DNA from: an uncultured Oscillospiraceae bacterium | Lineage (GTDB): Bacteria > Bacillota > Clostridia > Christensenellales > Aristaeellaceae | Length of the DNA stretch: 59,395 nucleotides | Assembly: GCA_964439755.1 (NCBI GenBank) | Contig: CAYTPJ010000001.1 | Location: 1-59,395, forward strand | Direction: 5' to 3' | In this document: positions 13,821-25,860 of the stretch, in pieces | How the letters are laid out: every line of letters begins with the position of its first letter | Position numbering within the stretch: position 1 is the first letter of the stretch | Position numbers and translations under genes: made by a program | The notes under the pieces: generated by a model | The model's database searches: none | The model's input: only the letters and a program-made list of their open reading frames with translations | What the model was told of the DNA's origin: nothing

Positions 13821-16800
13821 ATGCGTACAGTGAGGGAAAAAATTGTTTATAAAAAGCTTGAATTGCCCAAGCACTATATTTTTTTATTAAAGAATGCGAT
13901 TAAAATGCTGACAAGAGCGCAAAAAGATATGAGCGCACATATGAGTGAACAGGTGTACAGCGAAGGGGCAAAGTGGTTGATTGAAAATCAGAAAATATTG
14001 TTAAAGAGGGCAGAAGAAACAAAGAGTCAGCTAAAAGGAGTTAAAAAACTGCCCGTGTGTGCGCAAAACAAGCAAAAAGTGCGTGTGCTTTTGTGTGCAG
14101 AAAATATATTGAAAGGTCAAACGGTGGTAAAAAAAGAGGATATTGTGTACTATATAGAGCACAATGAAATTGCCCTTGGGTATGATGAAATACAAGCTTT
14201 TTATTTATCAATGAGTGTTGTGCTTTTAAAAAAGGTGCTGTGCGCCGCACTTCTTTTAAAAGAGGAGGCAAGGAATTATACATGCGCCCAAAAAGCACTC
14301 AAAAAAGCACCAAAGGGAGCGCTTAAAGCACTTAAAAATAATAAAAAAGCCTATCAAATGCTTCAAAATATATTGCTCTTAAAAGGGGATGAAAAAACGC
14401 TGCAATTGGTTCAAATGAAGGGCAATAAAATGGTGTTTAAAGAAGACAAACAAAGTGAGCCTCCACCATTGTTTTTGTTGCGCCATGCTGTGCTCTGCTT
14501 GCGTGCGCTCAAAAAAATGCCTTTTGAACAAGTGAAAGAACAGATAAGCCCTGTGTATACTGCTTTTAAAAAGGATGAAACGTATTGCAAAATGGACAGG
14601 CAAAGCAGGCACTTGTATCTTTTTAAAGTGCACCAAATGACAAAGAAATTTAAGGTGCCAGAAAAGGAAATTGTACAGAGTATTTTAGCGCTTACAAAAG
14701 GGCAAACAGGGGCGCAAAAAGAAGTGGGCACATACTTATTTGAAAATCAAAAAAAGGTGCTGGAGCACCTTGGTAAAAAAAACATATTCTTTTCTTTAAA
14801 AACAAGGGAAACGCTCTTTGTTTGTGCACACTGCATACTTTTTATTGCTTTGTTTTTAGGTGTTTTTTGGATAAATAAAGAAGTGCTCTTAGCGCTTTTA
14901 TTGTCCCTTTTACTCTATGATTTTATTTCCCTTTTAGCGTGTAAAACTGTGCTCAAATATCATAAAAATGGCTTGCTTCCCAAACTGCTCATCAGGCAAT
15001 TAGACGAACAATTGCGCACGCTCGTCGTTGTGCCCACATTGATTACAAACAGGCAACATGCGCTTTTTATGGTGCGCCACTTGAGGGAATTGCGTGCACT
15101 CACCCCTGAACAAAATGTGGAGTTTATGCTCCTTTGTGATTTAAAAGATGCACATACGAGGGTAGACCAAGAAGATCAAGGGATTGTAGATATGCTCAAA
15201 GAAAGCGTATTTTTGCTCAATCAAAATGATGAAAACGTGTTTCATTTGATGGTGCGAGAAAGGCAAATGTCTAAAACGCAAAACAAGTATATTGGGCGAG
15301 AGAGAAAAAGAGGCTCTCTCCAATCTTTGCTCAACATCATCGCAGATGAAACAGTAGAAGATTTTTATGTACATCAATCTGTACCACATAATTTTTTAAA
15401 AAATCGGTATCGCTACGTCGTCACCTTGGATCAAGACACCTTGCTTTTAAAGGGGGATTTAAGGCGCATGGTGGGGGCAATGGAGCACCCTTTGCAAAAA
15501 GACAAAGTGGGGGTGATGCAACCTAAGATGCTTTCTCATCCCATGTCAGTTCAAACAAATGTGCAAAGAAAACTGTTTACAGAGTGCTCTGTGCCCTCTT
15601 ATTTGGGCGCCATTAAAGATGTATATCAAGATGTGTTTTCCAAAGGCTCTTTTGTAGGCAAGGGCATTATAAACCCGGTCGTGTTTTGCCAGAGAATAAA
15701 AGGAAAAATAAAAAATGAAAAGGTGCTCAGTCATGATTTGATTGAAGGGGAAATCGTCTGTTCCAAAGTATTGGAAGATGTGTTTATGCTCGATCAAAAC
15801 CCAAAAAAGGTGAGTGGATTTTACAAAAGGTACAACAGGTGGGTGAGAGGGGATGTACAGCTTTTGCCTTTTTTGGGCAAAAGATATTTGTCCCTTTTAT
15901 CCAAGTTTAAAATTTTAGACAATATGAAAAATGCGCTTGTGCCTCTTGCAAAAACAGGGGTGATTTTGTATGGTGCATATAATAATATGCCGTGGTTGTT
16001 TGTGTTTGCTCTGTCTTTTCCTTTAAAAAAAGCGTTTATCCATCTGATTTTTTTGCCTTACAAAGCGTATGCAGCTTTGGACGGTATAGTGCGTGCTTTG
16101 TTTCGTATGCTCTTTAGCAAAAAAAATCTATTGTCATGGGTTACGGCAGATCAAACGGATGTGCAAATAAACAATATGGTTGCACCCTATTTTTTTACAG
16201 TATTTGTAGGGGGTGTCACGCTGTATTTATCCCTTGTGCACGCTTTGCCCATTTACTTTGCTATCGGATTTTTACACGTGCTCTTTCCACTTTTTGTGCC
16301 TTATTTTGATCAAAATGAGAAAGAAAAGGATGCGCTTAAAGAACCACAGAGGCAAACTTTGCTTTTGCTTGCACAAAAAACGTTTGCATTTTTTGATGAA
16401 CATGTGACAGAAAAAACAAATGATTTGCCTCCTGATAACCTTCAAGTATCGCCGGATAAAGGGCGTCAAATGCGTACTTCTCCGACCAACATGGGGTTTT
16501 ATTTACTCAGCTTATATTGCGCAAAAGAGTTGGGCTTTATATCGCAAGATACGCTGTTTGAACGTGTAAAAAAGAGTGTGCACACACTCAAAAAATTGCC
16601 CAAATACAAAGGGCATTTTTATAATTGGTATGATATTGAACATTTGGAAGTGCTTGCGCCCCCTTTCGTGTCCTCCGTGGATGAAGGCAATTTGATGGCT
16701 TGTTTGCTCACCCTTTTACAAGCTTTAAGGGGAGAAAAAACGCTTGTACCCTCTTATCAAGAGGTGCTCTACGACATTCAAAAGTTGGTGATGGACATGG

Positions 16801-19800
16801 ACTTGTCCATGCTTCAAAACAAAAAAGAAGGGCTTTTTGCCATTGGGTTGCACACGGAAAGTGGTATGCTTACAGAAGGCTGTTATGATTTATTTGCATC
16901 AGAAGCGTTGATACTCACGTATGTTGCAGTGATGTTAAACATCGTGCCCGTGTCAAACTTTAAGCATTTACAAAGGGAAATTACCAAAACAAAAGGAGGC
17001 AACACATTGCTTTCTTGGTCGGGCACAGCGTTTGAATACCTGCTCCCCATGATATTTTTCCCTACTAAAAAGGGCACTTTGCTCTATGACAGCAACAAGA
17101 GCTTTATTAAAGCACAGATAAAAAAGAATGTGCTCATGCCTTTTGGCATCAGCGAAAGTGGGTATTATGCGTTTGATTGTGATTTAAACTATCAATACAA
17201 AGCGTTTGGGCTGTATGAAGCGGCTTTGTCTAAGGAAACGGAAGGCAATGTGATTGCCCCTTATGCGAGCATATTGTTTTTGAAATACGTGCGTAAAAAG
17301 GTACTTAAAAACATTGAGATATTGAAAAATTGGGGCGCAGAAGGAGCGTTTGGCCTGTATGAGGCGCTGGATTTTGAAAAAGCGAGGAGCACTTCTCCAC
17401 CTGCTGTTGTAAAAAGCTATATGGCGCACCATCAGGGCATGATTTTGTGCGCCATCACCAATGCGCTGTGCAACAACAAAATAGAGCGTACATTTTCTCA
17501 ACTGCCCATGGCGAGTGCACACCATTATTTGCTCATGGAAAAGGGCATTCGGCATGAAAAAGCGAGCAAAATCACACAATACGATGTTCAAAAAGGAGTG
17601 CATCAAGCAGATGAAGGGTATCATGTGCTGACGCAAAATGCTGCCCAAGTGCTCCACGCAAAGCATACTTCTTGCCTCATGGACTCTAAGGGCACAGGGT
17701 ATATTAGGTATAAGGATTTGTATTTGACACGCTATGTATCCCCCCACACTTCAGGCGTATTGTATTACGTGAAAAATCACAATAATAACAAAACAATGCC
17801 TCTGTTTCAAGAGCCTCATGCAACGATCTATCAACACGCCGTTGTATACACTTCGCATTTTGAAGGGTTATACATAAGGGAAACACGCTTTTTAAGCGCC
17901 ATGGAAGGCGCATTTGTGTCCTCCTTTGAGGTGCAAAATAAGAGCGAACAAGACGTTGCATTTTCCTTAACGAGCTATTTAGAGCCTGCAATGAGCACGC
18001 TCAAAGAGGACGAAGCGCATCCAAACTTTAGAGATTTATTCATTGTGACGGAAAAGGTGGGCAAGCGTGCGCTGATTGCAAGGCGCAAAAAGAGAAGCGA
18101 ACAAGAGCAAGAGGGCATGTTGGTACACTTTTTTGTGGGCAGTGTGAAAATGCTTGATTTTTGTGTAAACAAAGCGCAGTTTATAGGTAGAAACAGAGAT
18201 GTGTATGCCCCTAAATTGCTTTTTCAAAATGCAGAAGAAAAGGAAAAAGAAGTGCCCTCCGTGTTCCCTTGCTTATCCATTCAAGCACATCTTGAAGTGC
18301 AGAAAAAGAGCGCAGTCACCTTTTCTTTTGTCACTTCTTATGTGCACACAAAAGAGCAGGCAGATGCGATGCTTAGAACATTTTCTCAAAAAGAGGATGT
18401 GAAAAACGCCCTCGAACTGTCAAAAACACATGGCATGTTGTTGCTCAAAATGTTTGATTATCCAATCATGCGAAGTGTATTTTTGTATCACTTTTTGTAT
18501 CGCATTTTGTTTGACCAAACAAAGCGTGCATACAAGTACAAAAAGGAGGATGTTTGGCAGTTTGCCATCAGTTTAGACCACCCGATTTTGCTCCTTTGTT
18601 TAAAGGAAAATAGCCCGAGAGAGGAAATAAAAAACATACTCAAAGACATTGCTTTTTTAAGCTACAAAGGGATCACAATAGACCTTGTGTTTTTAAAGAA
18701 AAAAGGGGCAGAATACAGCGACATGTTGCATACTTTTTTGAGGGCTGAAATCAGTGTGTCAAAAATCAAGCACAACCATGTGTTCATAATAGAAGATACA
18801 AAGGAAAATGAAAATATACTCTCTTGTTTTTGTACGCTTAAAATTGTGCTCCATCAGAAAATGACATTGCAAGATGTGACCATGCAAGCACAAACCGTCA
18901 TACCACCTACTTTGATGCCTTCTATGTGTCATGAAATTGCGGTGGATAAAAAGCTCAATAAATATGGCAGTTTAAAGGGAGAGAGAGCGTTTGTGGTGCA
19001 CAATATTCCTCCTTTGCCTTGGTGCTATTTTTTGGCAACAGAACATTTTAGTACGCTCGTGTGTGAAAGTGGCATTTTATTTTCTTGCTTAAGAAACAGC
19101 CGTATGGAAAAATTGACCAGACGGCACAAAGATGTGTTAAACCCTCAAAACGCAGAAGAAATATACGTGCTCAATGAGCAAAAAGAAATGCTTCCTCTGT
19201 GTTCTGGCACTGTGGTGTACGAACTGGGTACAGCCACTTACTTTGTAGAAACAAGCTGTTTTACAGCGCAAACCACGTGCTTTACAGATGCGGACATGCG
19301 CATGGGTGTTCGAGATGTGGTAATCAAAAACAAGGGGCAAGAAGGGCTCCATATAGAGCTTTGCTATCAAGTGCATTTTTCAATGGGCGAAAGTGGAAAG
19401 TGGACGCATTGCGAAGCGCAAAAACACGCAGTGCACGCTTTTCACCCTGATTTTAATGGGTTTACATGTGCATATATGGAGAATGCTGTGGTGCACAATG
19501 ATGTGCTGTATATGCCCTTGCACATCCCAAAAAACGAGAAAAAAAGGTGTACAATGTGCTTGCTTTATGCTGAAAATGAACAAGAAAAAACAGACATGCT
19601 GGAGGTACTGTATCAACAAGGGGTGCTCAAGCGAATGCGCAAAGTAAAAGAATATTGGGAGAATAGTCTGTCACGCCTTTCAGTGTCTTTGAACGATGCG
19701 CACATGGAAAGGTGCATCAACACGTTTTTCCCTTATCAAACGCTATCTTCTCGCATTTTTATGCGTTCTTCCTTGTATCAAGAAGGGGGCGCATACGGAT

Positions 19801-21122
19801 TTAGAGATCAATTGCAAGATATGCTTGCGTTGTTGTACACAGATCAAGATCGTGTAAAAGCACATATTTTGCGCTCTGCAAGCCATCAATTTATAGAAGG
19901 GGATGTGCAACATTGGTGGCATGAAGAAAGAAAGGGTGTGCGCACGAAGATATCAGATGATAAGCTTTTTTTGCCTTTTTTAACAGCGTGCTACATAGAG
20001 GCAACAGGGGATCAGAGCATTTTAAAGGAGCAAGTGCCTTATGTAAAAAGTGCGCCTTTGGGGGAACATGAGGAAGAAAGGTATGAAACCCCTCAGGTGA
20101 CCGAATATATGGAAAGCCTTCAAATGCATTGCAATCGTGCGATAGAGAGCGTTAAACTGGGAGAAAAAAGCTTGCCTTTGATGGGGAGTGGGGATTGGAA
20201 TGACGGCATGAACAAAATTGCAGGCAAAAGAGGAGAAAGCGTGTGGCTTTGCTTCTTTTATATATTTGTGTTGGATCAATATAAAAAATACAGTGGCAAA
20301 GAACAAGTGTATGACAAAATGCAAAAGCAGATGAAAAAGGATGCGAATGTTACATGGGATGAAAGCTGGTTTATACGTTGTTATGATCAAAATGCTTTTT
20401 CTGTGGGGGGTAAAAACAGTGCTGTGCCCCGAATAGACCTAATCAGTCAAGCATTTTCTGTGTTTGCACAGATGAAGGAGGACAGGACGACGCAAGCAAT
20501 AAAAAGTGCGTTGGAAAAGCTATTTGATAGAGAAAATGGTGTTGTCAAGCTTTTAGACCCTCCTTTTTCAGAGCAGGAAAAAGCAGGATATATTTCTTCT
20601 TACGTGCCTTATGTTCGAGAAAATGGAGGGCAATACACACATGCTGTTGCGTTTATGATTTTGGCATTGTGCCAAAAAGGAATGATAGAAGAAGCGTGGG
20701 ATATGTTGATCAAAATTTTGCCTTTAAATCACGCAGACAGTGATGAAAAAATAGATGTGTACAAGGTGGAGCCGTATGCGTTGAGCGCAGATGTATATGC
20801 AGGGGCGCTCATGGGGCAAGGGGGATGGACGTGGTACACAGGGAGTGCCTCGTGGATGCAATACGCATTTTATCAAGGGCTTATGGGGCTTAAAATAGAG
20901 GGCGACACACTGAAATTTTCTCCTAAATTAAAAAAGGACATGCACACGTGCACGGTGTACTATACCTATCAAGATACAAGGTATATTTTAACAGGGGATA
21001 AAAATGTGTTTGTGCCCAAACTGGATGGAAAAATCATTACAAACGGTGTGATTACATTGCAAAATGATGGGAAAACACACGTGTACCATGTGCCTGTGGT
21101 GTACCAAAATATAGAAATATAA
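13821..21122 (+). CDS. cyclic beta-1,2-glucan synthase-like giant protein (GT84-like transferase + alpha/alpha-barrel middle domain + GH94 phosphorylase-like C-terminus)
   Basis: 2433-aa single ORF with SD GGGAGGGG upstream.
- TM cluster at about aa 340-385 and 700-800.
- Transferase motifs VVTLDQDT, SHDLIEGE and YNRWVRGDVQ.
- Middle-domain motif RTSPTNMGFYLLS.
- C-terminal GH94-type motifs FRDQLQD, GDVQHWWH, SGDWNDGMN and GGQYTHA. Confidence 0.8.
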   Translation: MRTVREKIVYKKLELPKHYIFLLKNAIKMLTRAQKDMSAHMSEQVYSEGAKWLIENQKILLKRAEETKSQLKGVKKLPVCAQNKQKVRVLLCAENILKGQTVVKKEDIVYYIEHNEIALGYDEIQAFYLSMSVVLLKKVLCAALLLKEEARNYTCAQKALKKAPKGALKALKNNKKAYQMLQNILLLKGDEKTLQLVQMKGNKMVFKEDKQSEPPPLFLLRHAVLCLRALKKMPFEQVKEQISPVYTAFKKDETYCKMDRQSRHLYLFKVHQMTKKFKVPEKEIVQSILALTKGQTGAQKEVGTYLFENQKKVLEHLGKKNIFFSLKTRETLFVCAHCILFIALFLGVFWINKEVLLALLLSLLLYDFISLLACKTVLKYHKNGLLPKLLIRQLDEQLRTLVVVPTLITNRQHALFMVRHLRELRALTPEQNVEFMLLCDLKDAHTRVDQEDQGIVDMLKESVFLLNQNDENVFHLMVRERQMSKTQNKYIGRERKRGSLQSLLNIIADETVEDFYVHQSVPHNFLKNRYRYVVTLDQDTLLLKGDLRRMVGAMEHPLQKDKVGVMQPKMLSHPMSVQTNVQRKLFTECSVPSYLGAIKDVYQDVFSKGSFVGKGIINPVVFCQRIKGKIKNEKVLSHDLIEGEIVCSKVLEDVFMLDQNPKKVSGFYKRYNRWVRGDVQLLPFLGKRYLSLLSKFKILDNMKNALVPLAKTGVILYGAYNNMPWLFVFALSFPLKKAFIHLIFLPYKAYAALDGIVRALFRMLFSKKNLLSWVTADQTDVQINNMVAPYFFTVFVGGVTLYLSLVHALPIYFAIGFLHVLFPLFVPYFDQNEKEKDALKEPQRQTLLLLAQKTFAFFDEHVTEKTNDLPPDNLQVSPDKGRQMRTSPTNMGFYLLSLYCAKELGFISQDTLFERVKKSVHTLKKLPKYKGHFYNWYDIEHLEVLAPPFVSSVDEGNLMACLLTLLQALRGEKTLVPSYQEVLYDIQKLVMDMDLSMLQNKKEGLFAIGLHTESGMLTEGCYDLFASEALILTYVAVMLNIVPVSNFKHLQREITKTKGGNTLLSWSGTAFEYLLPMIFFPTKKGTLLYDSNKSFIKAQIKKNVLMPFGISESGYYAFDCDLNYQYKAFGLYEAALSKETEGNVIAPYASILFLKYVRKKVLKNIEILKNWGAEGAFGLYEALDFEKARSTSPPAVVKSYMAHHQGMILCAITNALCNNKIERTFSQLPMASAHHYLLMEKGIRHEKASKITQYDVQKGVHQADEGYHVLTQNAAQVLHAKHTSCLMDSKGTGYIRYKDLYLTRYVSPHTSGVLYYVKNHNNNKTMPLFQEPHATIYQHAVVYTSHFEGLYIRETRFLSAMEGAFVSSFEVQNKSEQDVAFSLTSYLEPAMSTLKEDEAHPNFRDLFIVTEKVGKRALIARRKKRSEQEQEGMLVHFFVGSVKMLDFCVNKAQFIGRNRDVYAPKLLFQNAEEKEKEVPSVFPCLSIQAHLEVQKKSAVTFSFVTSYVHTKEQADAMLRTFSQKEDVKNALELSKTHGMLLLKMFDYPIMRSVFLYHFLYRILFDQTKRAYKYKKEDVWQFAISLDHPILLLCLKENSPREEIKNILKDIAFLSYKGITIDLVFLKKKGAEYSDMLHTFLRAEISVSKIKHNHVFIIEDTKENENILSCFCTLKIVLHQKMTLQDVTMQAQTVIPPTLMPSMCHEIAVDKKLNKYGSLKGERAFVVHNIPPLPWCYFLATEHFSTLVCESGILFSCLRNSRMEKLTRRHKDVLNPQNAEEIYVLNEQKEMLPLCSGTVVYELGTATYFVETSCFTAQTTCFTDADMRMGVRDVVIKNKGQEGLHIELCYQVHFSMGESGKWTHCEAQKHAVHAFHPDFNGFTCAYMENAVVHNDVLYMPLHIPKNEKKRCTMCLLYAENEQEKTDMLEVLYQQGVLKRMRKVKEYWENSLSRLSVSLNDAHMERCINTFFPYQTLSSRIFMRSSLYQEGGAYGFRDQLQDMLALLYTDQDRVKAHILRSASHQFIEGDVQHWWHEERKGVRTKISDDKLFLPFLTACYIEATGDQSILKEQVPYVKSAPLGEHEEERYETPQVTEYMESLQMHCNRAIESVKLGEKSLPLMGSGDWNDGMNKIAGKRGESVWLCFFYIFVLDQYKKYSGKEQVYDKMQKQMKKDANVTWDESWFIRCYDQNAFSVGGKNSAVPRIDLISQAFSVFAQMKEDRTTQAIKSALEKLFDRENGVVKLLDPPFSEQEKAGYISSYVPYVRENGGQYTHAVAFMILALCQKGMIEEAWDMLIKILPLNHADSDEKIDVYKVEPYALSADVYAGALMGQGGWTWYTGSASWMQYAFYQGLMGLKIEGDTLKFSPKLKKDMHTCTVYYTYQDTRYILTGDKNVFVPKLDGKIITNGVITLQNDGKTHVYHVPVVYQNIEI

Positions 21123-21148: not shown

Positions 21149-21176
21149 ACCTTTTGATGCGCTTTGTCATATTGTA
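21149..21176 (+). promoter_or_regulatory. candidate sigma-K-type (late mother-cell) promoter upstream of the 97-aa module gene
   Basis: AC (21149-21150), a 17-nt spacer, then CATATTGTA (21168-21176) fits the B. subtilis sigma-K pattern AC-N16/17-CATAnnnTA. It lies about 57 nt before the ATG. The motif is short, so a chance match is possible. Confidence 0.3.
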
Positions 21177-21232: not shown

Positions 21233-21526
21233 ATGAGTATGCCAGTCATTACCCCAGGTACGGGCACAAGATGCCAAGCTATCACAGACATCATCACTTC
21301 TGTTGCGTTGGAACAGACTGCCCTTTCCCATATTTTGAATGCAGAAGGTGAAAAAATCCAAGCGATTGTTGCGAGGGCAACAACGGCAGAAGAAATGCTT
21401 GCTGTGAATAAATCGGTTGAAAGCATGGTCAAGTCCATTGCGCGCCTTGAAATGATGTTACACTCTAAATTAGAGTTGTTTGAAGAGTGCTTGTGCGATG
21501 AATGCCCCGTAGCTGTGGCAAACTAA
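21233..21526 (+). CDS. 97-aa protein consisting only of the shared C-terminal module (ALEQTALSHILNAEGEKIQ ... Cys-rich tail CLCDEC)
   Basis: The start is placed at the ATG at 21233, 9 nt after AGGAG; the track ORF begins further upstream at 21188. No signal peptide or TM segment. It is a paralogue of the C-termini of the next two genes. Confidence 0.75.
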   Translation: MSMPVITPGTGTRCQAITDIITSVALEQTALSHILNAEGEKIQAIVARATTAEEMLAVNKSVESMVKSIARLEMMLHSKLELFEECLCDECPVAVAN

Positions 21527-21534
21527 AGTGCTGA

Positions 21535-21571
21535 AATTGCCTCTTGTGCTTTATATACAAGGGGCAATTTT
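21535..21571 (+). terminator. rho-independent terminator after the 97-aa gene
   Basis: 13-14-bp stem AAATTGCCTCTTGT / ACAAGGGGCAATTT (one G-U pair) followed by TTTTGCATTT. A TATAAT box at 21582-21587 follows it. Confidence 0.7.
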
Positions 21572-21613
21572 GCATTTCTATTATAATAAGCCATTTGGAA
21601 AGGTTGTGATACC

Positions 21614-22936
21614 ATGGCTTTTGGTGATTTGATCACCACATTTCAGCTTCCAGAAAACATTCCCATGGGGTTGGGATATGGGTTGACCGTGTATAATGCG
21701 CAACTTGTAAACGGAAGCTTTACAAATAACAATAGCGATATTGGTTTTTTTGATATCAACAATAATTTGAATTATTTAAGCCATGTAGAAACAGAAGAAA
21801 CATATCAGAGTATACAATACGATGAAGATGAGCATGTTTTTTGGGGGTTGGCAAACATTATCCCCACCCCTTTTCCACAACCACACTTGCAGAAAATTTA
21901 TAAATTCAATGTAGATGGCACATCGATTTTTAATTTTGATGTGCACGACAGCATTCCGCCTGCTGACCGTTTTAATGAGAACGATTGGGAAAGTCAGCTG
22001 GCAAATGCCCTTTCAATGACGCCCGATAAGACGGAATTTTGGGTATCTTATTACCGTGCATTTCGTATTTATCGTTTTAGTGTCGCAGGGAATTATCTTG
22101 GATTTTTTGATATTCCTCCAGAAAATGAAACGATCACTGGCATGAGCACAGACGGTACCAACATGTGGTTTGTGACGTATGATTTTAATCCAGACCCACA
22201 AAGGGTATTGACCATCAGTAAAAGAGATACAATGGCAAATGTGCTTCAAACAATTACAGTGCCTGTGCCCGAATCCCCCCAAGGTGGAGGATATAATATC
22301 AACGATATTGAGTTTGATCAAGTCAATTTTTTGCCAAAGTGCGCTTTGTGGGTGCGTGCATCTACGGGCGATGTAGGCAACGCTCAGCAGTATGCGCATG
22401 TATATGATATTGGCGATTGTAGTGGTAGCTGTACAGAACCTCCTATAATTATCGCAGAAAATTTGTGTTTGAAAGTAGGCGCAAATTTTGATCCACTCTT
22501 CAACGTGCAGGCGGTCGACTGTGACGGTAGCGACATCCCTTTGACAGAAGCAAACGTAATCTTTAACGATGTAGACACGGCAACACCGGGTATGTATACG
22601 GTAACATACCAAGTACAGAGCGTGTCAAACGATTTAATAACAGTCAAAAGCATTTATGTAGGCGTGGTGGAAGAAACACCCCGTATGCAGGCGATGACGG
22701 ACTTGCTTGCATCCATTGCGCTTGAAGAAACAGCCCTGTCACACATTTTAAACGCAGAAGGTGAAAAAATACAAAAAGCACTCGCATTGGGGCTATCGAG
22801 TGCAGAGCTTATAAAAATCAACCAATCGGTGGAAGATATGACAGAGGAAATTACAAACTTGGAATGGGTGTTGGAGCAAAAAGCAATGCTTTGTTCTTGT
22901 GAAAATGGTCAACCAAAATGTGACTTTCCACAATAA
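21614..22936 (+). CDS. 440-aa protein: beta-rich blade-like repeats + Ig-like domain + shared C-terminal module and Cys tail
   Basis: No signal peptide (MAFGDLITTFQLPEN...).
- Recurrent xFW(V/G)...IY(K/R)F blade-like segments.
- An Ig-like segment ending PGMYTVTYQVQSVSNDLITVKSIYVGVV (DUF5011/Big-like pattern).
- Then TDLLASIALEETALSHILNAEGEKIQ ... LCSCENGQPKCDFPQ. Confidence 0.8.
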   Translation: MAFGDLITTFQLPENIPMGLGYGLTVYNAQLVNGSFTNNNSDIGFFDINNNLNYLSHVETEETYQSIQYDEDEHVFWGLANIIPTPFPQPHLQKIYKFNVDGTSIFNFDVHDSIPPADRFNENDWESQLANALSMTPDKTEFWVSYYRAFRIYRFSVAGNYLGFFDIPPENETITGMSTDGTNMWFVTYDFNPDPQRVLTISKRDTMANVLQTITVPVPESPQGGGYNINDIEFDQVNFLPKCALWVRASTGDVGNAQQYAHVYDIGDCSGSCTEPPIIIAENLCLKVGANFDPLFNVQAVDCDGSDIPLTEANVIFNDVDTATPGMYTVTYQVQSVSNDLITVKSIYVGVVEETPRMQAMTDLLASIALEETALSHILNAEGEKIQKALALGLSSAELIKINQSVEDMTEEITNLEWVLEQKAMLCSCENGQPKCDFPQ

Positions 22937-22947
22937 AATACAATGGA

Positions 22948-22984
22948 AGCGCTTCTGTGTTTTCTTTCACAGGAGCGCTGTTTT
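22948..22984 (+). terminator. rho-independent terminator after the 440-aa gene
   Basis: 12-bp stem AGCGCTTCTGTG / CACAGGAGCGCT (one G-U pair; 22948-22959 / 22968-22979) followed by GTTTTGTG. It lies inside the 5' extension of the track ORF 22943-24049. Confidence 0.7.
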
Positions 22985-23032
22985 GTGCATACAATGATAC
23001 AGGGAAAGTATAAAAAGACAGGAGGTTTTCCC

Positions 23033-24049
23033 GTGCTAAACGGTGTTTGTGTAAAAGAAATACCCTTTGTATTGGACTGTCAAAGTGCGTATGATTGTGT
23101 TGCTTTTGACGGTTACTATTATTATTTTTTATTTTGCCATCAGCAGTATGTTTTAAAAACGGATGTTTGTTTTCAATGTGTCCATTCTTATCCTTTGCAT
23201 AGAAAATACACGAGCTTGTGCTTTGACAAAGCTGAAAAATGCTTTTGGGCATCTTATACCAACAGCCCGTATACCCTGTATAAACTGAGCATAGATTTGT
23301 GCGAACTTGGTACATGGAGTGTTCCCAAAAGTGCAAACGGATGTGGCGTATTGTCTAGCCTTTCTTATGATGATGTAAACAATGCGCTGATGTTCGTGTT
23401 GGACAATCAGTTTGTTCAATATAAAATAAGCACCAACAACTCTTGTGTACAGTATGATGATGTAAATGCCTATATTTTTTCTGCATCTTGCGTGTTTCCT
23501 TTTTTTGCCTTAACGCTTGTTCAAAACAATTTGACAAAGTTTGTATTGTTAGACTGTGCAGGGCACGTGCAACACGCATGTGATATGCCTTGTGATTTTA
23601 TTGTTAAAAACGTCTATATGTCATGCGAACAAAATGTTCAAAACCAACTTTTGCTCGATGTGTTTATTGTGTATAAATGTGGGCAAAGATGTTGTAAAAA
23701 AGTGCTTGCTTTTCCACTTGATTGCGCTTGCACTTCTTGCCCACAGCCCTGCTCTCCTCCTTTGTGTTTCCCTGTTCAGCCGTGTGATGGAGGCATAGAA
23801 ATACTCCACTCTATTGCTTTACAGGAAACGGCACTTGCGCACATTTTAAACGCAGAAGGAGAAAAAATACAAAAGGCAGTGGCGTGTGCTTGCTCTGTGG
23901 AGGAATTGTTGTGCGTCAACAAAAGTGTGCAAGATACCATACACAAAGTTACAGCTTTAGAACAAACCTTGGCTTTAAAGCTGACCAGTGTGTTAGATAT
24001 GCCCTCTTGTTGCCCGACAGATTGTTGCGCACAGGGAAAAATGTTGTAA
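23033..24049 (+). CDS. ~338-aa very Cys-rich protein: beta-rich region + Cys/Pro linker + shared C-terminal module and CC..CC tail
   Basis: The start is reassigned to the in-frame GTG at 23033, 7 nt after a perfect AGGAGG (23020-23025) and downstream of the terminator hairpin. I count about 32 Cys in about 338 aa. The linker reads CACTSCPQPCSPPLCFPVQPC. The module reads HSIALQETALAHILNAEGEKIQ and the tail MPSCCPTDCCAQGKML. No signal peptide. Confidence 0.75.
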   Translation: MLNGVCVKEIPFVLDCQSAYDCVAFDGYYYYFLFCHQQYVLKTDVCFQCVHSYPLHRKYTSLCFDKAEKCFWASYTNSPYTLYKLSIDLCELGTWSVPKSANGCGVLSSLSYDDVNNALMFVLDNQFVQYKISTNNSCVQYDDVNAYIFSASCVFPFFALTLVQNNLTKFVLLDCAGHVQHACDMPCDFIVKNVYMSCEQNVQNQLLLDVFIVYKCGQRCCKKVLAFPLDCACTSCPQPCSPPLCFPVQPCDGGIEILHSIALQETALAHILNAEGEKIQKAVACACSVEELLCVNKSVQDTIHKVTALEQTLALKLTSVLDMPSCCPTDCCAQGKML

Positions 24050-24143: not shown

Positions 24144-24629
24144 TTACTGTTTGGATATGTTTTCTTTTTCTAAATTTTCTTTCTCCATTTTTCCTTTTTC
24201 ATCTTTTTTGGTTTTATCACCATGGTTGTGCAGTTGCGCCAAAATCGTTTTAAGCTTATCTGGGATGGGCAAGCCCAACCTGCTGATATTTTCTATGAGG
24301 GATAAACCTTCGTTGGTTAGGTAAAAGAAAATAATGGCAGACCGTAGTGCATTGCCATTTTGCACCACGTGCACGTCTATGATGTGCCCAATGCCTACGA
24401 GAGAAAATATCAATATTTTTTTAAATATGCCTTTAAATCCCACTTCGCTGGACATGCTTTTTTCCACAATTGCACACATCATGCCCGAAATATAATCTAA
24501 AACACAAAATACAATTAAAGCAATCAACATGCCGTCCATTTCTCCTAAAAATACGCCGAGCCACCCCCCAAGGAGGGTACATGACATTTGAATTTTTGTC
24601 CAAATCATGTCTATGGTGTTATTATCCAT
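24144..24629 (-). CDS. phage-type holin, holin_4_1 / TcdE toxin-secretion-lysis holin family
   Basis: 161 aa with TM helices. The family pattern is present: VLDYISGMMCAIVEKSMSSEVGFKGIFKKILIF...RSAIIFFYLTNEGLSLIENISRLGLPIPDKLK, with a charged Lys/Glu C-tail. The ATG lies inside the last codons of the hydrolase gene (8-nt overlap), and GGAGG is 9 nt upstream. Confidence 0.85.
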   Translation of the reverse strand: MDNNTIDMIWTKIQMSCTLLGGWLGVFLGEMDGMLIALIVFCVLDYISGMMCAIVEKSMSSEVGFKGIFKKILIFSLVGIGHIIDVHVVQNGNALRSAIIFFYLTNEGLSLIENISRLGLPIPDKLKTILAQLHNHGDKTKKDEKGKMEKENLEKENISKQ

Positions 24630-25524
24630 TGATTGTAGCCTCCAGTTTCTTTAATTTTGAAAGCAATAAAGATAATTCAGAACGGATGCTTTCTATTTCC
24701 TTTTTAAAAGCTTGGTATTGCAAAGTATCGCTTTCTTCTATGCCTTCTTCTTCCTCCTTTTTTTCCTCCTTTTGGGTAACAAAAAAGAGCAACTTTTCCC
24801 ACGTTTTGTCGCCTACAATACCATCTATTTTCAAATTGTTCTTTTGCTGAAACAAGAGCACGCTTGCTCGGGTTTTCTTTCCAAAAATCCCGTCCACCAC
24901 CAAGCTTTCTCCAAGCAAGTTCAAATGTCTTTGAAGTACTTTGACATTTTCTCCTCTTGAACTAAAGCGCAGTGTTTCTAACCCCTGTTTTTCTGTTATA
25001 TCGCTGTATAGCCCTGTTGGAATCATATGGTGTGTCCACGCAGAAGGCACAAACTTTTCTCTCACCACGCCATAAGCGTGTGCTTTTGCATGCACCACTG
25101 TGTTGTCGCCCAAATACAAACCTACATGTGTCATAATGCCCTTTCTTTCTCTAAACACAAGGCACATTTTGTCTGTCTGCATGCTTTGAATGGTGCCTCT
25201 TGTGTCGTACGCTGTTTTTCTCCATTGGCTGGTTGCACCCGACACGAGGCGAATGCCCCCTTCTTTTAAGGCGTAGCGTGTGAGCTGTGCGCAATCATAC
25301 GCCGTTTTCCCCACATTGTTTTCTCTATCAAAATATTTGCAGTTTTGGCAGCTGCTTGCCCTGCCTGATAATATATCGCAATGGTGGAACATCTTGCTTT
25401 TATAGTCGGGGTATTGCTGTGCACGTGCCTTTCGATAGGCAGTCGTACATATTTGCCCTGTGCCACCATATATATAAGGATGCCCCACTTTGGAAAGCGC
25501 CCATTGCTTGATCTTTTCAATCAT
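24622..25524 (-). CDS. NlpC/P60 (C40) peptidoglycan endopeptidase with PG_binding_1 domain and coiled-coil tail (endolysin-like, no signal peptide)
   Basis: Catalytic Cys context YDCAQLTRYAL and His context THVGLYLGDNTVVHA. PG-binding repeat GENVKVLQRHLNLLG...DGIFGKKT...DGIVGDKTWEKL. I place the start at the ATG at 25522-25524 (MIEKIKQW), 9 nt after GAGGAG, rather than the track start at 25566. Confidence 0.85.
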   Translation of the reverse strand: MIEKIKQWALSKVGHPYIYGGTGQICTTAYRKARAQQYPDYKSKMFHHCDILSGRASSCQNCKYFDRENNVGKTAYDCAQLTRYALKEGGIRLVSGATSQWRKTAYDTRGTIQSMQTDKMCLVFRERKGIMTHVGLYLGDNTVVHAKAHAYGVVREKFVPSAWTHHMIPTGLYSDITEKQGLETLRFSSRGENVKVLQRHLNLLGESLVVDGIFGKKTRASVLLFQQKNNLKIDGIVGDKTWEKLLFFVTQKEEKKEEEEGIEESDTLQYQAFKKEIESIRSELSLLLSKLKKLEATING

Positions 25525-25860
25525 ATATTTTTTCTCCTCATCTAAATGTGGGCAAAATGCACCCACAGATAATGCCTGCTTTAAAAACAGACTGCTTTTA
25601 GGATATCTATCCTATTTACATCATACGTAGTTTTTATAGGAGTGTTCTTTTATATGAAAAGACAAATATAAATAAAATATACGAATTGAAAGGTTCATTG
25701 TCCCAAAATGAAAAATACAAGCACATTTTAAAAAATGAAAATTATGGCAGATGAACGAAACATTTTTTATCTTTGCGTATTTTAGGGAAAAACGCTTTAC
25801 AATTTTAAAAAATATGATATACTTGAGGAGGCAAAAAAACACACGAAAGGATGACAGAAT

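Follow-up and report, generated by a model that had tools for sequence, protein, structure and literature searches.

Sleutel, Sogues and Remaut reported the A-ENA family of endospore fiber subunits in March 2026 (Nat Commun 17:3809, PMC13111695). Its 101-amino-acid (aa) subunit builds the 8-nm "sporesilk" fibers that surround the spores of Bacillus thuringiensis sv. israelensis, in which helical hairpins stack into a two-start cross-alpha helix, resolved by cryo-electron microscopy at 2.1 Å (PMC13111695). The corresponding PDB entry, 9IHH, is entitled 'Ex vivo spore-silk A-ENA fibers'. According to the same paper, the fiber is held by a 13-residue N-terminal latch, which spans four stacked subunits in 9IHH, and by intermolecular isopeptide bonds, of which each subunit makes up to ten. 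Here we describe a cluster of three tandem genes (genes 1 to 3) that share a C-terminal A-ENA module. They lie in a stretch of 59,395 nt of contig CAYTPJ010000001.1 (assembly GCA_964439755.1; forward strand, positions numbered from its first letter), from now on the window, and they are likely to encode one fiber subunit and two propeller-bearing subunits of a clostridial spore fiber.

A-ENA homologs are known in Clostridia and Bacillales, and single-domain subunits are often clustered with A-ENA fusion proteins (PMC13111695). These fusions, such as 'A-BclA' (A-ENA plus collagen-like and C1q domains) and those with SdrD_B or OmcB passengers, were proposed to be fiber 'ruffles' that dock into or onto the fiber via homotypic A-ENA contacts; the main text of PMC13111695 describes only N-terminal A-ENA with C-terminal passengers. 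Genes 2 and 3 resemble the published fusions in combining a passenger with A-ENA, in adjoining single-domain subunits and in keeping the cross-link residues. Unlike them, they have the passenger at the N-terminus and A-ENA at the C-terminus, with no latch and no free amine, and their passengers are beta-propellers, one of them with an Ig-like domain, whereas A-BclA carries collagen/C1q. Gene 1 resembles A-ENA/A-ENA1 of B. thuringiensis sv. israelensis (Q8KNV8/Q8KNV7) in being a hairpin of ~100 aa with a latch of the form M-G/S-M-P-x-I..., and in sharing the signature H-[IV]-[IL]-NAEGEK-[IV]-Q and the residues of bond types 1-3, with 43% identity over 89 aligned positions. In both cases the genes occur in multi-copy clusters, have no signal peptide and lie near a cell-wall hydrolase gene. 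However, the locus described here is chromosomal and clostridial, while that of B. thuringiensis is on a toxin plasmid, and no Cry/Cyt genes are found near the cluster in the window.

Two other types of fiber deserve comparison. The S- and L-ENA appendages found in the Bacillus cereus group consist of DUF3992 subunits joined by disulfides and bear L-BclA fibrillae at the tip; they are also extremely stable self-assembling spore fibers with a major subunit and tip or minor proteins, and their Cys-mediated cross-links provide a possible analogy for the CxC tail of the proteins studied here. Their fold is unrelated, being a beta-jellyroll (DUF3992) and not a helical hairpin; in agreement, a Pfam scan of genes 1-3 gave no DUF3992 match and the predicted fold of gene 1 is helical, so they are not S-/L-ENA jellyroll subunits. 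Covalent bonds of the Lys-Asn/Gln isopeptide type, formed with a catalytic Glu, are common to A-ENA and sortase pili (e.g. Spy0128), and SdrD_B, SpaA-like and DUF11 stalks are present in loci related to ours. Unlike sortase pili, genes 1-3 have neither signal peptide nor LPXTG, and there is no sortase among the annotated genes round the cluster. In addition, the sortase pili treated in PMC13111695 have their autocatalytic isopeptide bonds inside the subunit, and A-ENA has them between stacking subunits.

Three genes that share the A-ENA domain

The cluster comprises the following features:

21233-21526, + strand: gene 1, 97 aa, ATG start, ribosome-binding site aaaggag; stand-alone A-ENA subunit with N-terminal latch (residues 2-12), helix 1 (13-48), helix 2 (52-81) and tail F83-E-E-C86-L-C88-D-E-C91
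21614-22936, + strand: gene 2, 440 aa; propeller head, Ig-like domain and A-ENA domain
21671-22408, + strand: head of gene 2, residues ~20-265
22463-22630, + strand: Big_3-type Ig-like domain of gene 2, residues 284-339
22673-22936, + strand: latch-less A-ENA domain of gene 2, residues 354-440, tail C-S-C-ENGQPK-C
23033-24049, + strand: gene 3, 338 aa from GTG, ribosome-binding site aggagg; Cys-rich, propeller-like head (23033-23800, residues ~1-225) and Cys-rich linker (226-249)
23780-24049, + strand: A-ENA domain of gene 3, residues 250-338, tail S-C-C-PTD-C-C

For gene 3 the longest open reading frame (ORF) starts at 22943 and has 368 aa; the 338 aa are those of the public database gene call.

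We identify the shared module as the A-ENA domain (Pfam PF26595; PDB 9IHH), the helical-hairpin subunit of sporesilk endospore fibers. When compared with 9ihh_A by phmmer, gene 1 matched at E=6e-16 (residues 1-93), gene 2 at 1.3e-6 (residues 356-420) and gene 3 at 1.3e-7. The precomputed Pfam label PF26595 is carried by all three proteins, the family name 'A_ENA' coming from the contig annotation, and also by the 120 relatives of gene 1 that were listed (120/120) out of 1253 found. Our scans of Pfam-A, NCBIfam and PHROGs gave no match to the module; the empty Pfam-A result is explained by the copy used, which is older than PF26595, as the label on the relatives indicates. The AlphaFold2 model of gene 1, built with 103 homologs, has a pLDDT of 87 and displays a 12-residue N-terminal coil followed by helices 13-48 and 52-81, and its sole Foldseek match in the PDB at E<=0.001 was 9ihh_A (E=2e-4, TM 0.64/0.66, 43% identity).

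The C-termini of genes 1-3 align with 28 invariant columns that include S.AL..TAL.HILNAEGEKIQ, N.SV, LE..L..K and the tail Cys. The His codons at nt 21329, 22742 and 23840 are placed 64, 63 and 68 residues before the C-termini of genes 1, 2 and 3, and DNA identity is 37/39 between 22742-22780 and 23840-23878, and 29/39 between each of these segments and gene 1. In a six-frame scan of the window, a profile made from gene 1 relatives matched gene 2 (E=5e-26) and gene 3 (7e-23) and nothing beyond them, so the similarity of the modules is not due to chance. We also looked for an LPXTG motif, a signal-like N-terminus or a transmembrane (TM) segment in genes 1-3 and saw none, the maximum 19-residue hydropathy being 1.0-1.6.

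An earlier sequence-only reading of this DNA had pointed to three consecutive same-strand genes with a common C-terminal module and Cys tails, and the alignment and the coordinates agree with it; its His positions, distances to the C-termini and 37/39 identity were reproduced exactly, and neither signal peptide, TM segment nor sorting motif appeared here either. It had taken the 97-aa protein for essentially the module alone, and gene 1 is indeed a full-length stand-alone subunit over the whole span of its 9IHH match. The two helices that it had drawn for the module correspond to the helix-loop-helix hairpin of the model. What did not hold is that the module was an unrecognized one: it matches a characterized family, PF26595, with a structure at 2.1 Å and a known role (PMC13111695), and this removes its novelty.

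The cross-link residues were mapped via Table 1 of PMC13111695 and a HMMER alignment to 9IHH, and their conservation was counted in 120 close homologs of gene 1 and in a wider sample of 85 stand-alone proteins and 74 fusions with an N-terminal passenger. Gene 1 begins with MSMPVITPGTGTR, to be compared with MGMPTIPEGLDITR in 9IHH. The latch motif M-[SG]-M-P-[VI]-I-x-P-G is conserved, with S or G at position 2 in 119/120 and P4 in 120/120 close homologs. In isopeptide bond type 1 the donor is the free N-terminal amine of the latch (PMC13111695). Gene 1 keeps the residues for this bond (S2 N-terminus to Q43, catalytic E40) and for those of type 2 (K41 to N59, catalytic E38) and type 3 (K79 to Q28, catalytic E27), and S/G2, Q43, E40, K41, N59, E38, K79, Q28 and E27 are each conserved in 115-120 of the 120 close homologs. 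The latch is not present in genes 2 and 3, which have the head domain in its place. Their A-ENA domains retain K41, N59, E38, Q43 and K79, as do the N-terminal-passenger fusions of the wider sample (K41 in 74/74, E38 in 73/74, and N59, Q43 and K79 in 72/74 each). The sequence-only reading had suggested a disulfide lock; the main lock known for the A-ENA family is made of intermolecular isopeptide bonds and not of disulfides, and, to judge by the residues, three of its five triads are conserved in this cluster.

The Cys residues of the tail constitute a second conserved trait. Among the 120 close homologs, C86 is found in 116, C88 in 117, C91 in 103 and C14, at the latch/helix junction, in 108. 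The F-x-D-C-x-C tail is conserved, and in the wider sample the C-x-C pair is its conserved core in both stand-alone and fused forms, C14 being present in 28/85 and C91 in 23/85 stand-alone proteins. Neither the tail nor C14 is found in the Bacillus protein, and they may provide extra cross-links. We looked at whether the CxC motif compensates for the lost Lys at position 72, and K72 was found in no sequence of the sample.

Propeller heads and related loci

Beta-rich domains had been read from the sequence in front of the module of genes 2 and 3, and both heads are of the propeller type. The head of gene 2 (residues 20-265) is modeled by AlphaFold2 with a pLDDT of 60-90 as four-stranded blades, and its Foldseek matches are NHL/WD40 propellers, glutaminyl cyclase and the receptor-binding protein of phage phi11; Pfam recognizes Big_3 / Bact_surface_Ig-like in the same protein. 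Only 7 relatives of gene 2 were found, every one of them with the same architecture. The closest homolog, P0122 (56% identity; L085-L087, e.g. L086 4540-5880), has no stand-alone A-ENA within ~10 kb and adjoins pentapeptide-repeat, DUF4280 (PAAR-like) and VgrG-like (Phage_GPD / Phage_base_V / DUF2345) proteins.

Gene 3 contains 32 Cys in 338 residues (9.5%) and belongs to a much larger family. An exhaustive HMMER search with the full-length protein found 1058 representatives at E<=1e-3, 258 of them at E<=1e-10, and most of the best 150 have 320-370 aa and align end to end with 24-35% identity. Against the PDB, the profile of this family matched WD40-like propellers (7bie, 5.5e-12; 2ymu) as well as 9IHH. 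The head had been considered an orphan, since a word-indexed search of 5.8 billion proteins returned nothing but gene 3 itself, and this was discarded in view of the 1058 relatives; a search that misses more than 1000 relatives at 24-35% identity requires caution with its other 'orphan' results. An hhalign comparison of the heads of genes 2 and 3 alone covered 89 columns, with a probability of 76% and E=2.2e-5, and BLASTP gave E=0.002, which lends moderate support to their being distant homologs, as they probably are.

The related loci were surveyed in the window and 84 fetched loci, and counts of loci refer to 82, leaving out three redundant copies of one locus, L001. A profile of the gene 3 head found 34 proteins in 33/82 loci, all of them with A-ENA; in this sense the head is dedicated, being found among these loci only fused to A-ENA. 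At least 575 relatives are present in species-representative genomes, and the carriers include Oscillospiraceae, Lachnospiraceae, Erysipelotrichaceae, unclassified 'Bacilli' and Clostridia metagenome-assembled genomes, Flavonifractor, Angelakisella and Longibaculum. Some carriers are in culture, such as Angelakisella massiliensis Marseille-P3217 (L064), Longibaculum muris DSM 29487 (L053), Flavonifractor porci (L068) and Oscillospiraceae PP1C4 (L012, L013). The window and the 84 loci, with the redundant L001 copies counted, hold 185 A-ENA genes, of which 91 are stand-alone, 77 have an N-terminal passenger and a C-terminal A-ENA, and 1 is extended on both sides. A latch-bearing subunit and an N-terminal-passenger fusion occur together in 56/82 loci and in 33 of the 43 full-length ones, so the layout of the window, with one stand-alone gene and two fusions, is the one usually found in Clostridia. 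In L088 the relative closest to gene 1 (85% identity) is part of a trio of the same kind, as it lies between a 334-aa A-ENA fusion, comparable to gene 3 in size, and a DUF6923-DUF11-A-ENA protein.

Other passengers are adhesin-type stalks (SdrD_B, DUF11, SpaA-like, CshA, Ig-like), which form larger fusions with A-ENA at the C-terminus. We also observed that the second fusion of each locus is highly variable (L088 2517-3899, - strand; L005, L008, L043, L044, L051, L053, L070, L072), with 460-1450 aa and DUF6923-DUF11, SdrD_B repeats, SpaA-like, CshA_NR2 or GLUG passengers, while the gene 3-type protein is conserved. This difference suggests one core partner and one exchangeable adhesin-like partner per locus. 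Among the 141 immediate neighbors of the A-ENA clusters (L005-L084), the only recurrent family was Glycos_transf_1 (PF00534), with 15 members (group-1 glycosyltransferases). Several C-terminal-passenger fusions have a Ser/Thr-rich linker right after the CxC motif. The recurrence of PF00534 and these linkers hint that fibers or heads are glycosylated.

Expression signals and genomic surroundings

The features found round the three genes are:

21149-21176, + strand: sigma-K-type promoter motif AC-N17-CATAttgTA, exact pattern match, starting 84 nt before the ATG of gene 1
21532-21572, + strand: stable hairpin just past gene 1, with a U-rich tract behind it; 17-bp stem, -24.6 kcal/mol, z=-6.0
22948-22979, + strand: hairpin between genes 2 and 3; 12-bp stem with 7 G-C pairs, -23.7 kcal/mol, z=-5.15
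22988-22995, + strand: CATACAAT, sigma-E-type -10 match, right after the intergenic hairpin and ~38 nt before the GTG of gene 3
24144-24629, - strand: holin (Phage_holin_4_1, 8.6e-40 / TIGR01593), convergent with the cluster
24622-25566, - strand: hydrolase with NLPC_P60 and PG_binding_1 domains, overlapping the holin gene
13821-21122, + strand: GH94 ORF of 2433 aa, immediately upstream of the cluster

The sigma-K consensus, known from mother-cell promoters of Bacillus subtilis, is AC, 16-17 nt, and CATA---TA. We found this pattern upstream of 35/88 latch-bearing A-ENA genes, usually at a distance of 70-90 nt from the ATG, and upstream of 19/75 N-terminal-passenger fusion genes, compared with 7/477 of the remaining ORFs with 200 aa or more in the loci concerned and with ~1 in shuffles. 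This enrichment across the family supports expression late in the mother cell, most likely under sigma-K, and a product of the spore surface without any secretion signal would fit such timing. On the opposite strand, a sigma-K-like pattern occurs in 12/88 of the regions taken 200 nt upstream of stand-alone genes (L005-L084), well above shuffles; it probably reflects that gene 3-type fusions are often divergent from the same intergenic region (L009, L010, L052, L053).

None of 200 shuffles folds as well as the hairpin after gene 1, which is probably a partial terminator that would keep the major subunit above the fusion proteins. The element CATACAAT is also part of a sigma-70-like site (22966-22995) and might serve gene 3 as a promoter of its own.

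As for the neighborhood, GH94 catalytic and supersandwich domains occur in the 2433-aa ORF together with a glucoamylase-like domain, and the protein is similar to cyclic beta-1,2-glucan synthase or glycan phosphorylase; no link with the A-ENA genes was established for it. The other surrounding genes encode GH20, PhoR/PhoB, Pst/PhoU, SecA, PrfB, TsaD, RNR, DapB and Asd. A prophage or plasmid origin of the cluster was rejected in view of these chromosomal housekeeping and metabolic flanks (SecA, PrfB, TsaD, RNR, DapB, Asd, Pst/PhoU). No phage genes are found near the holin and the hydrolase, and the pair stands isolated, outside any prophage.

The sequence-only reading had proposed to check whether a holin/hydrolase pair accompanies the module elsewhere, and this association turned out not to be general. 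By phmmer, the holin was found in 4 of 85 sources, namely the window and L001, L003 and L004, three copies of the same locus, and not in the other 80 loci; in L001 it also adjoins the A-ENA genes. No holin or peptidoglycan hydrolase family was recurrent in a Pfam scan of the 141 immediate neighbors, and the closest relative, L088, has neither. The association with the cluster is therefore lineage-specific at best. The pair may be a mother-cell-lysis or holin-export cassette, and its tie to the cluster is weak. The A-ENA cluster of B. thuringiensis includes a cell-wall amidase that is thought to act in mother-cell lysis (PMC13111695).

A putative clostridial spore fiber

Several observations point in the same direction: the matches to 9IHH, the hairpin fold, the conserved triads, the recurrent locus type, the dedicated head and the enrichment of the sigma-K motif, together with the adhesin-type passengers, the lack of export signals and the published precedent for the docking of fusions. 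On these grounds we consider it likely that genes 1-3 are an A-ENA sporesilk cluster, located on the chromosome of a spore-forming member of Clostridia, in which one fiber subunit and two propeller subunits join the same fiber. Gene 1 would be the major subunit, a predicted hairpin with an N-terminal latch, and by comparison with the B. thuringiensis structure its hairpins would stack as cross-alpha protofilaments and be locked to their neighbors by intermolecular isopeptide bonds of three types. Genes 2 and 3 would most likely co-polymerize with it as minor subunits via their latch-less A-ENA domains, so that the propeller heads may be displayed, or anchored as a binding module, at the fiber end or along its side. 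Synthesis would take place late in the mother cell under sigma-K and without a secretion signal, the hairpin after gene 1 would limit read-through into the fusion genes, and release would occur upon mother-cell lysis. The earlier idea that stand-alone and fused copies assemble different heads into one structure is in line with what PMC13111695 proposes for A-ENA subunits and fusions. Judged from the sequences, the N-terminal passengers without latch, the dedicated propeller heads, the CxC tail and the retention of three of the five cross-link types are departures from the published system.

Some of the data weigh against a spore fiber of this kind. Bond types 4 and 5 are lost with respect to B. 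thuringiensis A-ENA, K77 being replaced by L72 in 118/120 and K76 by R71 in 91/120 close homologs, and Q82 by H77 in gene 1 of the window. The catalytic position 27 is Q in gene 3 and often I or V across the N-terminal-passenger fusions, so these may be only partly cross-linked. The co-assembly of C-terminal, latch-less A-ENA domains would be an extrapolation, as the published fusions have A-ENA at the N-terminus. The model of gene 2 falls below a pLDDT of 50 for residues 268-440, where helices 356-391 and 396-428 are predicted; past the head it is unreliable, and it allows no inference on how the head packs against the hairpin. The sigma-K pattern occurs 3 times in the window where 1.27 matches are expected, which makes the site of gene 1 weak when taken alone, and the window contains none of the classic sporulation genes.

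The same features could be accommodated in other ways. A-ENA might act here solely as a handle for hetero-oligomerization or docking, by which the propellers would be held in a Cys-rich layer of the spore coat or exosporium, in the form of a small bundle or sheet and without any long fiber. Clostridial spore-surface proteins include cysteine-rich ones, which gene 3 resembles in its Cys content, and the loss of two fiber cross-link types and the many loci with as many fusion as stand-alone genes would fit this arrangement. We regard it as improbable, because the subunit is complete in gene 1, with the latch that spans four stacked subunits in 9IHH, the three axial cross-link triads are near-invariant, and the hairpin after gene 1 suits a stoichiometry of major and minor subunits. 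Even less credible, to the point of being very improbable, is that the three proteins are cargo of the holin and the hydrolase, that is, signal-less adhesins or toxins released from vegetative cells with no relation to spores. The isolated holin and NlpC/P60 pair directly downstream with no prophage, the holin that also flanks L001, the similarity of the gene 2 head to phage receptor-binding propellers and the amidase of the B. thuringiensis cluster speak for it. Nevertheless, the holin is restricted to the window and the three copies of one other locus, no holin or hydrolase family recurs among the neighbors or appears in L088, genes 1-3 have no PHROGs match below E=0.03, and the enrichment of the sigma-K motif indicates sporulation.

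A further alternative concerns only the conserved Cys. C14 and the C-x-C-x-x-C of the tail might form a Zn or Fe-S site that clamps each hairpin at its open end, instead of an intermolecular disulfide lock. The four Cys belong to both chain ends, which meet at that open end, and the carriers are anaerobes, in whose cytoplasm disulfides are not expected. A '4Fe-4S cluster domain' is listed among the passenger matches of A-ENA homologs in PMC13111695 and may correspond to such Cys-rich tails, although this is only a lead. A metal site seems unlikely to us, since only C86 and C88 are broadly conserved and C14 and C91 are too infrequent in the wider sample to supply the ligands of a fixed four-Cys site, and since the related S- and L-ENA spore fibers are cross-linked by disulfides.

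Beyond the spore fiber itself, we put forward a more tentative proposal, possible but held with less than even confidence: gut Clostridia, together with Erysipelotrichales, would have a fiber type of their own, with three isopeptide types plus a cross-link of the CxC tail where Bacillus has five bond types. The Cys-rich propeller-A-ENA protein of the gene 3 family would act as a cap, anchor or tip adhesin at the latch-receiving pole, accompanied in each locus by a second, variable adhesin-type fusion, and such fibers would serve spore clumping or attachment in host-to-host transmission.

The shared module has already been named and its structure solved, and in B. thuringiensis the A-ENA fibers glue the spores to toxin crystals, their role elsewhere being left open (PMC13111695). 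So far these fibers have been characterized only in that organism, and the clostridial branch is without experimental study. Together with more than 500 related loci, the cluster described here indicates that anaerobic spore formers of the gut have a distinct version of A-ENA, with N-terminal binding-type heads, cross-links that differ from the Bacillus set and a promoter of the sporulation type. Should the fibers exist, they would be candidates for a role in spore adhesion and clumping during the transmission of gut commensals, and they would also constitute a natural case in which an ultra-stable, self-cross-linking protein fiber displays cargo from its N-terminal side.

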